Shown one piece after another: positions 54,171 through 57,417 of a stretch of 64,000 nucleotides of DNA; position 1 is the first letter of the stretch; each line of letters opens with the position of its first letter. The notes under the pieces were generated by a model. The model was not told the DNA's origin and searched no databases. It saw only the letters and a program-made list of their open reading frames with translations. Position numbers and translations under genes: made by a program. This DNA comes from Candidatus Micrarchaeota archaeon (GTDB lineage Archaea; Micrarchaeota; Micrarchaeia; Anstonellales; Bilamarchaeaceae): assembly GCA_022627495.1 (NCBI GenBank), contig JAKEGJ010000021.1:14612-78611 (forward strand), given 5' to 3'.

Positions 54171-55970
54171 TCAGATGAAGTCCTTGCCCTGCTCCTTTTT
54201 CCCTTCCTTGATGACTTCCGCGACTTCCTGCGGGTCGACCTGGAGGCGGTATTTCTGCATGATGGCCCGCATATCGAAGTCGTTCTGCATAGCTATGGCC
54301 TCCAGTTCCGGCCCGCTGATTTTCTGTAGCCGGTAAACCTTGAGGACCGCATCCACGCGGGCCCCTTTGGCCATCCCTTTCAGCACTTCGGGAATGGCGG
54401 CCTTCACGAATGAGCCCCTCCTGAATTCGGAAAAGAGCTCGGTAAGCGTCTTCTCGATATCGCTGAACTCGACGCCCTCCCTCCGGAGCGATACCAGGGT
54501 GTCCTCGAGGGTCGTGGCCGCGAGCATGGGGTCGGCGCCGGCCGATACCAGCCTTTCGAAACAATGGAGGTGCCTGGATTTCAGCACCCTCCCAGCCATC
54601 TCCTTGTTCAGCATCTTTTCAAGCCTGGCCTTCTTTTCCGCAAGCGGCTCGGCGCGCTCTATCGATGCGAGCAGAGCCTGCGTCAGCGGAATCGGCGGCA
54701 CGTCTGTTTCGGGATAAAGCCGCGCCCGGCCCGGAAGCGGCCTCATGAACGAGGAGGTGCCGTCGGGGTTCGCCCTGCGCGTCTCGCCGGGGATGAAATC
54801 CATATTAGCCCTCTGGAGGACGAATTCCATCGCTGATTTCGCCTGGCCAATGGGCGCCACGACAAGCACGAACGCGTCGTCATCATCCGCTCCCAGCGCG
54901 CCTCGCACGGCCGCCTCCTCGGCTTCCGTGATGCCGTACTTGCTTAAATCCTCGTCGCTGTGGATGATTCCCTTGACTCCGGCCTTCTTGGCGTAGTCGC
55001 TGAGCTCCGTCCCATAGCGCTTGCCCGGCTGGATTTCCATGCCAAGAAGCCCCTCATGCTCCGGGAGCCTCTGGCCGATGACCGCGCAGCCCGCCTTTAT
55101 TCCGCCGGCGATTATGGCGGCCTTGCTCATGCGCAGGAGGTCGCTCAATTCGACCATGTGCGTTTTGACCGGGAGCGCCTTGCGCTCGCGGATTTCCAGC
55201 AGGAGCTTCAGGAGGAGCGTCTGGCGGTTCACCTCGTTTTCCACGTATGCCGGGAGCATCTTCAAATCCTGCGCACCCTTCAGCTCCACGCGCGAGCCGC
55301 CTTCGGTCGATATGTTCACGTCCTGGCGGATGGTCCCGAGGCCCCGGGCAACCTTGCCGCTCGTGCGCAGCATCATGCCGATTTTCTCCGCGACCTCGCT
55401 AAGGTGGGCCCCGTCCCTGATGTCCGGGTCTGTGGATATCTCTATCAGGGGGATGCCGAGCCGGTCAAGGCGGTAAGTCGCCTTCCCCTCAGTCGCGGAC
55501 ACTATCCCCGCACTCTCCTCCTCGATGGCTATCAGCGGAATCCTTATCGTGCCCTGGGAGCTGTCGATATGGCCGTTCATGGCCACTATCGCGGTCCGCT
55601 GGAAGCCGGAGGTGTTGCTGCCGTCGATGACCATCTTCCTCATGATATGGACCTCGCTAACCGGCGTCGCGTTCAGCTGCATGGCGACCTGGAGGGCTAT
55701 CCGCAGGGCCTCGGGATTAAGCAGCGCAGGAGGCTCCTCGTCCGCCTCGACAAGGCAGTTGTTGGAATACGCATGGTATTCGAAAGCGCGGTCTTTCGCG
55801 AATTCGGCCTGGGACGCCTCGTCCGCCTCGCCCATCTCGCTCAGGACCGGGTGCAGCCTGCGCATGATGGCGCACCTTGGCTTCTCGTCCTCGCCAGCCA
55901 GAGCGGAGGGGCAGTTGCAGAAAAGCTTCGCGGTGTCAAGCCTCTGGTGGATTTCAATTCCGATTTTCAT
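54171..55970 (-). CDS. gatE: Glutamyl-tRNA(Gln) amidotransferase subunit E
   Basis: MKIGIEIHQRLDTAKLFCNCPS and full-length GatE architecture (599 aa). SD AAGGTGATACTCC lies directly upstream. T8/T6 runs follow the stop (54096-54112). Confidence 0.95.
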   Translation of the reverse strand: MKIGIEIHQRLDTAKLFCNCPSALAGEDEKPRCAIMRRLHPVLSEMGEADEASQAEFAKDRAFEYHAYSNNCLVEADEEPPALLNPEALRIALQVAMQLNATPVSEVHIMRKMVIDGSNTSGFQRTAIVAMNGHIDSSQGTIRIPLIAIEEESAGIVSATEGKATYRLDRLGIPLIEISTDPDIRDGAHLSEVAEKIGMMLRTSGKVARGLGTIRQDVNISTEGGSRVELKGAQDLKMLPAYVENEVNRQTLLLKLLLEIRERKALPVKTHMVELSDLLRMSKAAIIAGGIKAGCAVIGQRLPEHEGLLGMEIQPGKRYGTELSDYAKKAGVKGIIHSDEDLSKYGITEAEEAAVRGALGADDDDAFVLVVAPIGQAKSAMEFVLQRANMDFIPGETRRANPDGTSSFMRPLPGRARLYPETDVPPIPLTQALLASIERAEPLAEKKARLEKMLNKEMAGRVLKSRHLHCFERLVSAGADPMLAATTLEDTLVSLRREGVEFSDIEKTLTELFSEFRRGSFVKAAIPEVLKGMAKGARVDAVLKVYRLQKISGPELEAIAMQNDFDMRAIMQKYRLQVDPQEVAEVIKEGKKEQGKDFI

Positions 55971-56104
55971 GGAGTATCACCTTAGGAATTGAAAGATTTG
56001 GACCGCAGTCCAAACGGATTTCAATTCCGATTTTCATGGAGTATCACCTTAGGAATTGAAAGATTTGGACCGCAGTCCAAACGGATCTCTATGCCAATCT
56101 TCAT
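55949..56104 (-). repeat. 67-bp tandem duplication between gatD and gatE (two identical units plus a diverged 22-nt third copy of the gatE start)
   Basis: Units 55949-56015 and 56016-56082 are identical. 56083-56104 encodes the same MKIGIEI with 5 synonymous differences, and its ATG overlaps the gatD stop (TGATG). Confidence 0.9.
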
Positions 56105-57417
56105 CAGTATCCCTCGATTGCGGAGCGCGCGGTAATCTCCCCTGCGACATTCTCCATCATGAGCCGGCCTATCTCCTTCACGTCCTTGGCCTGGCCGCGG
56201 GCCCAGCACATCTTCGCGTATGCCGCCTCGGGCGTCCAGTCCGCCCCATCCCCGATGACGCCGGCCTCCATCAGGAGCCTGCCGCTCGAGTAGACGCGCA
56301 TGCAGATGCGCCCGGATATGCACTGGCTCGCCATCGCGACCGGGATGCCGGATGAAACGAGTTCGCGGATGGGCCTGACCACGCCTTTCACGGTCTTGTC
56401 TTCGAACGCGTTCGCGGGGGTGTGGCCGAGGCCGGTCCCGACCAGCACGATGCCGTCGTAATCGTCCAGCCTGGCGAATAGGTCTGGCCTGATGTTCGGG
56501 TGGATGTAGACCATGGCGACATTGTCGTTCAGCTCCTTCTTCGCAACCAGGCCGCCCTTGCGCCGCGGCACCCATTCCGAGAGGCGCTCGAAGCGCTTCG
56601 ACCGGTAGTCGACGGCTGCAAGCGGGTGCGCGTTTATGGAATGGAATGCGTCCCTGCGCGAGGTGTGCATCTTCCGGACGCGCGTGCCGCGGTGGAGGTG
56701 GCAGTAATCGTCGCTGGTCGAGGCGTGCATGCACACCGCAACTTCGCCCAGGTCCTGCGTGGCGCTGTATACGGAATTGAGCATGTTCATCTCGTTCTCG
56801 CTGGAGGGGCGGTCCGAGCTCCTCTGCGAGCCCACGAGGACGATGGGCACCGGGAGGTTCTGGAGCATGTAGCTTATCGCTGCCGATGTGTATGTCATGG
56901 TGTCGGTGCCGTGCATGACCACCACGCCCTCGCTCCCGTCCTTAATCTCGTCCTCAATCGCATCGGCTAGCATCCGCCAGTGCTTCGCGCCCATGTCCTC
57001 TGAAAAAAGCGAGAATATCTGGCGCGAATGGATGTCCCATTTTTTCAGCGTGGGAAACGCCATGCGCAGCTCCCTGGGCGTGATGGACGGGTAGACGGCG
57101 CCGGTCCGGTATTCTATCTTCGATGCTATCGTGCCGCCGCAGCCCAGGATTGCTATCCCTCCCCTCGCCACGGGCCCGGCCTCGTTTGCGGGGGCAGGCG
57201 GCTTCTTGGGCGCCTTCGCAATCAGCTCAACCGACTCCGCCTTGAGGCCGGTATTGTAGCCGTTATCGAGCTTGAGGACGATGGTGTCGTCGTCGCCTCC
57301 GGCAGGGCGCGGCATCAGGAAGCCGCTGTATTCGGCCCCGGCGGACACCACGCGGATGCGGTCCCCGGTCTCGATGCTGTTTTTCCTGAATTCCTCTAGA
57401 AGCCTTCGTGAGTACAT
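56104..57417 (-). CDS. gatD: Glutamyl-tRNA(Gln) amidotransferase subunit D
   Basis: Asparaginase-like domain (ILGCGGTIAS, HGTDTM). 437 aa. TATA-like tttaaaataaa ~35 nt upstream. Confidence 0.95.
   Translation of the reverse strand: MYSRRLLEEFRKNSIETGDRIRVVSAGAEYSGFLMPRPAGGDDDTIVLKLDNGYNTGLKAESVELIAKAPKKPPAPANEAGPVARGGIAILGCGGTIASKIEYRTGAVYPSITPRELRMAFPTLKKWDIHSRQIFSLFSEDMGAKHWRMLADAIEDEIKDGSEGVVVMHGTDTMTYTSAAISYMLQNLPVPIVLVGSQRSSDRPSSENEMNMLNSVYSATQDLGEVAVCMHASTSDDYCHLHRGTRVRKMHTSRRDAFHSINAHPLAAVDYRSKRFERLSEWVPRRKGGLVAKKELNDNVAMVYIHPNIRPDLFARLDDYDGIVLVGTGLGHTPANAFEDKTVKGVVRPIRELVSSGIPVAMASQCISGRICMRVYSSGRLLMEAGVIGDGADWTPEAAYAKMCWARGQAKDVKEIGRLMMENVAGEITARSAIEGY

Follow-up and report, generated by a model that had tools for sequence, protein, structure and literature searches.

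Introduction

Short palindromic dispersed repeats are known as repetitive extragenic palindromic (REP) elements and REPINs, with their REP-associated tyrosine transposases (RAYTs), as MITEs (miniature inverted-repeat transposable elements), as Rickettsia palindromic elements and as Correia elements. Translational coupling is likewise well known, with termination and reinitiation at overlapping stop and start codons and with upstream translation opening a helix. Gene-end-replacing homing elements are represented by the WHO elements of Torulaspora and Lachancea yeasts (Coughlan et al. 2020, PMC7282813). Here we analyse the junction between gatD and gatE in a Candidatus Micrarchaeota genome (assembly GCA_022627495.1, contig JAKEGJ010000021.1), within a stretch of 64,000 nucleotides (nt) that is called the window below. 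At this junction a hairpin cassette appears to be lodged 21-22 nt into gatE together with a spare start and a relay frame, an explanation that we hold, taken as a whole, to be moderately probable. The cassette combines the known kinds just named, i.e. small palindromic repeats, gene-end-replacing elements and translational coupling. Literature searches returned no published description of a hairpin cassette with a spare gene start.

As outlined by Coughlan et al., a WHO element enters a housekeeping gene at its end and supplies a substitute for that end, while the native end is left behind as a relic and relic arrays arise; in these respects the cassette is alike. The WHO elements of that outline are kilobase-sized, encode their own endonuclease and belong to a eukaryote, where FBA1 receives a new 3′ end from them, whereas the cassette comprises 45-67 nt, is non-coding, replaces a 5′ end by means of a hairpin and a start-complementary arm, and has no known enzyme.

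With REP- and MITE-type repeats the cassette shares small dispersed hairpins that lie in or beside genes and whose copy number is very uneven among relatives. It differs in that the hairpin tip alone is conserved and the inverted repeat on its flanks duplicates sequence of the local gene. Unlike MITEs, it lacks conserved terminal inverted repeats and carries a replacement start of 21-35 nt instead of a fixed short target duplication. The likeness to translational coupling lies in the TGATG or ATGA overlaps, in an upstream open reading frame (ORF) that ends on the next AUG or a few codons past it, in a Shine-Dalgarno (SD) sequence at the restart and in a helix over the early codons. Here, however, the upstream cistron is an insertion-orphaned copy of the start of the downstream gene and not a gene or a purpose-built leader.

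Results

Layout of the gatD-gatE junction

The source genome (G000) is a metagenome-assembled genome of 1.45 Mb in 29 contigs (C labels). It was compared with 40 genus genomes (G labels) and with metagenome contigs (L labels), in which gatD/gatE junctions were recovered by a protein-guided contig scan. L165 is an independent NCBI assembly (GCA_974337555.1), reached via exact identity of the GatE protein. The features of the junction are, in the direction of transcription:

56104..57417, minus strand: gatD, 437 aa, its stop codon TGA at 56106-56104 sharing bases with the orphan ATG (ORF list; Pfam GatD_N/Asparaginase on the identical L165 gene)
56083..56104, minus strand: orphaned native gatE start U, ATGAAGATTGGCATAGAGATCC, encoding MKIGIEI (codon types GGC ATA GAG as in unit-free relatives)
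56021..56104, minus strand: relay mini-ORF 1, 27 codons plus TGA, in frame +1 relative to the next start
56016..56082, minus strand: cassette copy 1, 67 nt, comprising linker G, hairpin, TC, arm, SD region and start copy M
56064..56081, minus strand: first copy of hairpin H, TTTGGAC-TGCG-GTCCAAA, belonging to the TTGRAC...GTYCAA family (covariation and census)
56052..56061, minus strand: arm copy 1, TTTCAATTCC, pairing with 56019-56028 (GGAATTGAAA, codons 4-7 of M)
56043..56048, minus strand: first Shine-Dalgarno copy, GGTGAT, located in the loop that the arm:start helix closes
56016..56037, minus strand: start copy M, the middle one, ATGAAAATCGGAATTGAAATCC, with the same sequence as the real gatE start
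55954..56037, minus strand: relay mini-ORF 2, with the same 27-aa peptide as mini-ORF 1
55949..56015, minus strand: cassette copy 2, 67 nt, without any difference from copy 1 and with the functional gatE start D as its last 22 nt
55997..56014, minus strand: hairpin H copy 2
55985..55994, minus strand: arm copy 2, pairing with 55952-55961 (gatE codons 4-7)
55976..55981, minus strand: Shine-Dalgarno GGTGAT of the real gatE start
54171..55970, minus strand: gatE, 599 aa, from ATG 55970 (ORF list; Pfam GatB_N/GAD on the identical L165 gene)

The description given in the original prediction is borne out by the sequence. The gatD stop overlaps an ATG on the minus strand (TGATG, 56106-56102), and ATGAAGATTGGCATAGAGATCC is followed by a 45-nt spacer, ATGAAAATCGGAATTGAAATCC, the same spacer and the gatE ATG at 55970. 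Tandem Repeats Finder reports a period of 67 with 2.4 copies (55949-56111). The units are identical: the 45-mer occurs twice with 0 mismatches (0 expected), and it has no further copy in the genome. The first 22-mer departs from the others at 5 positions, every one a synonymous third position. Both the 7-bp hairpin and the 10-bp inverted repeat between arm and codons 4-7 are present, as are the two 27-codon mini-ORFs (56104..56021 and 56037..55954), each of which stops 17 nt into the next start copy. The string AAGGTGATACTC also stands upstream of gyrA, at 46884 (ATG 46896, N-terminus GyrA-like). Judged by anti-SD complementarity this string is a consensus SD, and the two genes share it because both carry a strong consensus SD.

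The cassette recurs among relatives

Comparison of related gatD-gatE junctions, which had been proposed as a check, shows that at least 8 lineages of Micrarchaeota carry the unit at this very position. In most of the 40 genus genomes gatD and gatE overlap (ATGA or TGATG) or are separated by a gap of a few bases. Single units are found in G023, where the spacer differs at 3 of 45 positions, in G049 (71 nt) and in the metagenome contigs L057, L065, L070 and L074. L067 carries two units that are about 29% diverged, and a 26-nt remnant is left at the junction of G024. An exact degenerate-pattern scan of the metagenome contigs for the gatD-gatE unit gave no matches.

Lineages with the unit and lineages without it (TGATG/ATGA) are interleaved on the GatE tree. 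Within the clade of the source genome the unit is present in G000, L065 and G023, and the subclade of L054, G047 and G017 shows a clean TGATG, which as a sequence pattern is consistent with a single precise loss. The gatE genes of G000, G023 and L065 differ at about 50% of their four-fold sites, with no dip in the first 120 codons, and the 67 nt of spacer plus D differ between G000 and G023 at just 3 positions. A recent homologous-recombination tract around the cassette was rejected on the grounds that this dip is missing.

The gatD-gatE junction is a recurrent insertion site. L019/L060 and L077 have a small cysteine-rich ORF between the two genes, in gaps of 265 and 496 nt, the inserted ORF of L019/L060 starting with MISKCESCGMPMKEPEEFGG. 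Other relatives carry unrelated genes of 1-1.3 kb at this place.

Both helices are maintained by compensatory changes

The two structural elements are kept across lineages through compensatory changes. In an alignment of 10 gatE units the two helices are 98.3% paired, and 6 pairs are altered on both sides. Neither the observed paired fraction nor the observed covariation score was attained in any of 500 shuffles, which served as the null, and slid controls collapse. Compensated variants of the hairpin are TTTGGAC/GTCCAAA, TTTGAAC/GTTCAAA and TCTGAAC/GTTCAGA; those of the arm:start helix are TTTCAATTCC:GGAATTGAAA, TCTC..:..GAGA, CCTC..:..GAGG and ..TCCC:GGGA... This is further supported by structure prediction, since RNAalifold independently recovers the hairpin and the arm:start helix.

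It is the downstream start copy (98% paired) that the arm tracks, and not the orphan copy. Pairing with the latter was considered as a conserved structure and dismissed, as it reaches 83% and is broken at third-codon positions. Taken alone, the arm:start helix folds at -10.7 kcal/mol and leaves SD and AUG unpaired in a 23-nt loop, with pairing confined to codons 4-7. The local fold has a 4x2 internal loop beneath the hairpin, which itself begins 2 nt past codon 7. In Rfam 15 no family comes near its gathering score, the best hits scoring 15-19 bits against thresholds of 39-100 bits (E 0.8-10). A hammerhead-like string, CUGAUGA...GAAA, was discarded: it is merely Tyr-stop-Met-Lys, it is absent in L057 and it is without Rfam support.

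Such helices might belong to a dedicated cis-regulatory leader that gates GatE against GatD, through a structure-gated start or an attenuator-like peptide, with the tandem copy as a second gate. The maintenance of both helices by covariation speaks for a leader of this kind, and so do the position of SD and AUG in a 23-nt loop with codons 4-7 in the -10.7 kcal/mol helix, the relay ORFs, which are open without exception, and the arm of G023, which is able to pair alternatively with the orphan copy. In erm and cat attenuation, too, a short leader ORF is followed by hairpins before the start site. In contrast to those systems, SD and AUG lie in the loop and are never sequestered, the peptide is unconserved beyond the copied codons, and no inducer logic is evident. 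Nor is the tail peptide conserved, and the frame varies among the 65/67/71-nt variants. Moreover, the closest relatives G017, G047 and L054 manage with a plain TGATG overlap, and rtcA and the 5′ ends of tRNA genes carry cassettes of the same build and hairpins of the same family. We consider a dedicated leader unlikely.

The hairpin belongs to a dispersed family

A census with the pattern TTGRAC...GTYCAA finds 19 hairpins in the source genome, against 2 in the reversed genome used as control, and 10 of these 19 lie ≤250 nt from one of the 34 tRNA genes. Counted in the TTGAAC form, the genus genomes contain 0-28 hairpins each, against 0-4 in the control. The other sites in the source genome came to light when the whole genome was searched for tandem repeats and for start duplications at the peptide level; the same architecture is found there at two further settings, an RtcA-like gene (rtcA) and the region upstream of tRNA genes.

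A frequent geometry consists of a gene 5′ segment X, ~4 nt, the hairpin, ~2 nt, the inverted segment X′, a short linker and the gene 5′ end. By inspection, the pairs of linkers are TCCG/TC at gatE, TTGG/GC at rtcA, TCAG/TC at tRNA-Asn and TCAA/AG at tRNA-Ser. The flanking inverted repeats are locus-specific, namely GGAATTGAAA at gatE, GGCGAGGGTGG at rtcA and the acceptor strand at the tRNAs, and the direct repeats measure 15-35 nt.

At rtcA the cassette occupies the same position in 8 of about 30 genus genomes surveyed, with X-4nt-hairpin-2nt-X′-SD-start geometry. The rtcA arms match the downstream copy via different synonymous codon sets (CCGCCCTCACC with GGTGAGGGCGG, CCGCCTTCGCG with GGCGAAGGCGG and CCACCCTCGCC with GGCGAGGGTGG). 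The rtcA gene of the source genome carries two diverged 88-nt cassettes (C6:11609-11805 and C16:~86083-86152) with orphan starts MIEIDGSYGEGG, hairpin TTTGAACGA-CGTT-TCGTTCAAA and arm CCACCCTCGCC. This array sits at the assembly break between C6 and C16, whose ends overlap.

Among the tRNA genes one array comprises about five 67-nt units upstream of an intron-containing tRNA-Ser gene (C29:109540-109980). Each unit consists of the tRNA acceptor 5′ strand GCTGGGG, a hairpin (TTTGGACGG-TCCT-CCGTCCAAA in the first unit), CCCCAGC and an A/T-rich linker ending in TTTTCAC. A CRISPR-like reading of this 67-nt array was rejected, as its variable parts are palindromic hairpins and its repeats copy the tRNA 5′ end. 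Orphan 5′ ends of tRNA-Asn, -Met, -Thr and -Ser, with family hairpin and inverted copy, stand directly upstream of the mature 5′ ends at C24:12284-12368, C15:7280-7344, C16:54460-54580 and C29:87540-87700.

The unit could be taken for a locus-specific duplication or a device built for GatD and GatE. This view has to be abandoned in favour of one member of a dispersed hairpin-cassette family, because the family also occurs at rtcA and at tRNA 5′ ends, where a translational purpose cannot apply. For the same reason the arm pairing is not solely translational; the process that makes the cassette may have left it behind or may depend on it.

The cassette has no ORF of its own. The RAYT/Y1 transposase was considered as mobiliser and set aside, because it does not co-vary with hairpin number: the Y1 transposase family PF01797 is present in 9 of 40 genomes, unrelated to the hairpin counts. 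Thus, of the two marks of the REP/REPIN-RAYT system, the dispersed palindrome is found and the co-occurrence of a cognate Y1 transposase is not.

Several further observations were made around these elements. An imperfect member of the hairpin family (ATTGAACTGCGAGGTTCAAT) lies at 43713-43730 of the window, and its flanks show no obvious duplication. A conserved palindromic motif, GTGAAAC..GTTTTCAC, adjoins several tRNA 5′ ends. The sole IS200-type Y1 transposase match of the source genome (C22:22038-22385) has an in-frame TGA. At ~10490-10667 of the window a tRNA-Gly gene (10647-10719, minus strand) is followed downstream by two extra copies of its 3′ end (plus-strand sequence TGCGACCGCCGGGAATTG), and a small palindrome (GGGAATTG-CTCC-CCAATTCCC) adjoins each of the two; these extra copies are relics of the 3′ end of the gene and not of its 5′ end. 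An exact tandem duplication of ~152 nt (window 1388-1560) lies directly 3′ of a match to archaeal RNase P RNA. This match (1580-1908, minus strand) is full-length and sub-threshold (69.8 bits against a cut-off of 84); with RNase P RNA present in the genome, structured tRNA leaders are removable in the ordinary way.

Orphan starts as probable relics of native gene ends

Successive copies of the gatE start differ at codon positions 1, 2 and 3 in 1, 0 and 32 cases, a pattern that could suggest selection on the peptide. The codons themselves tell the copies apart. Those of U are of the type of the actual gatE start in unit-free relatives, and orphan gatE starts altogether use the codon mix of 46 unit-free starts, with ATA commonest, while the cassette-borne copies (D and M) have GGA ATT in 7-8 of 9 cases. 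The gatD-proximal 22-mer, which had been thought older, is therefore well described as the native gatE start. At the sequence level it is simplest to take the orphan for the host's own start and the functional start for one that travelled with the cassette; orphans and downstream copies would then differ by synonymous changes because native and cassette-borne copies are being compared, and not through selection on the peptide.

The rtcA orphans point the same way. They range from identity with the real start (G003) over synonymous-only differences (G000, G023 and G051) to amino-acid changes, seen in the orphans of G022 and G011 and in the middle copies of G000 and G023; an in-situ rtcA copy bears a non-synonymous change. 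Two orphans are a different native N-terminus: that of G018 reads MTAEVEMDGSH, which resembles the real starts of the related G053 and G005, versus a functional MIEIDGAH, and that of G047 is MTVDIISNREIDGSYGEG. Since rtcA orphans range from identical to a different native N-terminus, orphan starts are, as judged from these comparisons, relics and not selected peptides. Peptide-level selection on the orphan was rejected as the main cause of the 1/0/32 pattern: rtcA orphans diverge and the relay frame stays open. Marks of gene-end replacement are found together here, with native-type codons in the orphan, a start of its own type in the cassette, and relic arrays.

A different account would have the orphan start still in use for GatE, through an intron-like excision or a bypass from codon 7 to codon 7 as in T4 gene 60. 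It would place the upstream seven codons under selection at the protein level, as the 1/0/32 distribution of copy differences invites. Codon 7 is decodable by the same tRNA in both copies (ATC/ATC, ATC/ATT, GTC/GTC or GTT/GTC in all units), including a switch from Ile to Val in L070 and L074, and the conserved hairpin starts 2 nt after this codon. Like T4 gene 60 and the byps of Magnusiomyces mitochondria, which are mobile, the locus has a hairpin gap of 50-70 nt between matching codons. The hairpin family is also tied to tRNA genes, which are intron-rich here, and archaeal bulge-helix-bulge (BHB) introns are of similar size, have tRNA targets and contain an insert segment complementary to the adjacent exon.

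However, every downstream copy keeps its own SD and AUG, and rtcA orphans diverge or encode another native N-terminus with the relay frame still open. For bypass, a stop or unassigned codon at the take-off site is missing, the next codon being CGT, AAT, TGT or ACT and the ORF running on for 15-20 codons more. A nascent chain of 7 residues is too short for a signal of the gene-60 type. For excision, a BHB scan of 8 gatE loci at unit-length spacing gave matches at chance rate, none of them common to the loci, and the conserved geometry of two 3-nt bulges and a 4-bp helix is not found at the cassette. Continued use of the orphan start is therefore highly improbable in our view.

Copy number and the second unit

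The original prediction asked for confirmation of the copy number. L165 encodes an identical GatE protein and is 100% identical over gatD, U, spacer and D and 99.8% identical downstream, and it carries exactly one unit between gatD and gatE. In at least some of the population sampled, two units are probably real, because assembly of a pure one-unit genome cannot yield the junction of GGAATTGAAATCC with GTTTGGAC, and because a two-unit array can collapse to one.

The second unit of G000 would be a very recent tandem copy, plausibly a slippage product. As expected of simple slippage, the units lie head to tail with 100% identity, which applies to the second copy alone; a purely local origin does not fit, as the hairpin family is dispersed and the replacement codons are unlike the native orphan. 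Older, diverged two-unit arrays are those of L067 at gatE and of G000 and G023 at rtcA.

The whole structure could instead be a neutral scar of slippage or template switching, with the second copy an assembly error. A near-identical independent assembly with a single unit, the identity of the two units of G000 and the dispensability of the module, as seen from unit-free relatives, would all agree with this. It was to be expected of such a scar that relatives show no conservation of hairpins or mini-ORF, and the opposite is observed. The one-unit form persists in at least 8 lineages with saturated four-fold sites, compensatory substitutions maintain both helices, every relay frame is open and no unit is in frame. 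The old diverged two-unit array of L067 and those at rtcA argue against an error in the second copy, as does the M-to-spacer junction, which a pure one-unit genome does not yield. We regard the scar as very unlikely.

Relay frames are open at gatE and rtcA

The mini-ORF relay noticed in the window is recurrent. All 20 orphan ORFs compared (10 at gatE and 10 at rtcA) remain open through the cassette and terminate at the next start or shortly past it. They are out of frame with the gene in every case (one is 47 codons long), and their stops fall 4-17 nt past the first base of the start that follows, either in an ATGA/GTGA overlap or at an early in-frame TGA (AAT TGA at gatE, GAT TGA at rtcA). 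A shuffled spacer is open in a given frame with a probability of 0.50 for gatE and 0.74 for rtcA. In G011 the relay frame is open despite a diverged peptide; hence the recurring feature would be translation through the cassette and not the peptide. GGTGA stands 6-8 nt upstream of each start. With TGATG at gatD/U, stops near the next start and an SD nearby, the sequence marks of termination-reinitiation are in place. A relay that keeps gatE expressed and coupled to gatD fits the 20/20 pattern of the orphan ORFs, as far as sequence comparison can speak to it.

Discussion

We propose that the cassette is a small non-coding insertion made up of a hairpin of the dispersed family, a 10-nt arm, an SD and replacement gatE codons 1-7. 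Its arrival would have stranded the native gatE start upstream, where its overlap with the gatD stop persists and a short ORF out of frame with gatE begins, and GatE would be made from the last start. Ribosomes ending gatD would restart on the orphan ATG and pass the hairpin and the arm, which would open the arm:start helix. They would then stop 17 nt into the next start copy, or on the start in the 65/71-nt variants, and reinitiation there may be helped by the SD, so that the coupling of gatD to gatE would be relayed across the insertion.

Several points weigh against this reading. Reinitiation of ribosomes and melting of the helix are inferences, and the sharp borders with which a gene-specific cassette would have to enter a new genome call for an explanation. 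No mobilising enzyme was found for the cassette, and Y1 transposases are distributed independently of the hairpins (see above). The tRNA-gene members cannot use translation, and their pairing between arm and 5′ end may serve the formation or maintenance of the element instead. Instead of cassette travel, vertical descent with strong constraint could be the cause of the low spacer divergence; under that alternative, the synonymous-only pattern in all 8 gatE orphans needs another cause. The two-unit count of G000 has the status of a probable one. Finally, the lineages compared are kin, so the counts overstate independence.

A bolder version sees in the cassette an actively spreading, nucleic-acid-guided homing element of ultrasmall archaea that is mobilised in trans and acts on protein and tRNA genes alike. 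Precise insertion just inside the 5′ end of a gene would be guided by two segments that match the target, the arm as complement of the sense strand and the start copy as its duplicate; the synonymously recoded start would keep the new allele from being targeted again; and the built-in relay ORF would maintain expression of the host gene. Such an element would be a minimal, enzyme-less counterpart of the gene-end-replacing homing elements. We offer this version tentatively and think it rather doubtful.

Returning to the insertion of a hairpin cassette with a spare start and relay frame, its practical consequence is a caution for annotation, as such loci produce false small ORFs and wrong start calls. 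Arrays of this kind also account for contig breaks, e.g. the rtcA array that separates C6 from C16. If this explanation is true, mimic leader peptides and duplicated starts with synonymous-only differences, which are puzzling and easily mistaken for regulatory peptides, would be accounted for. The series of junctions with 0, 1 or 2 units would offer a natural system for studying termination-reinitiation and structure-opened coupling in archaea. It would further mean that essential genes of streamlined DPANN archaea have been repeatedly invaded inside their 5′ ends by tiny hairpin cassettes that mend their own damage via a spare gene start, with translation relayed across, and it would point to an unknown insertion mechanism in ultrasmall archaea.

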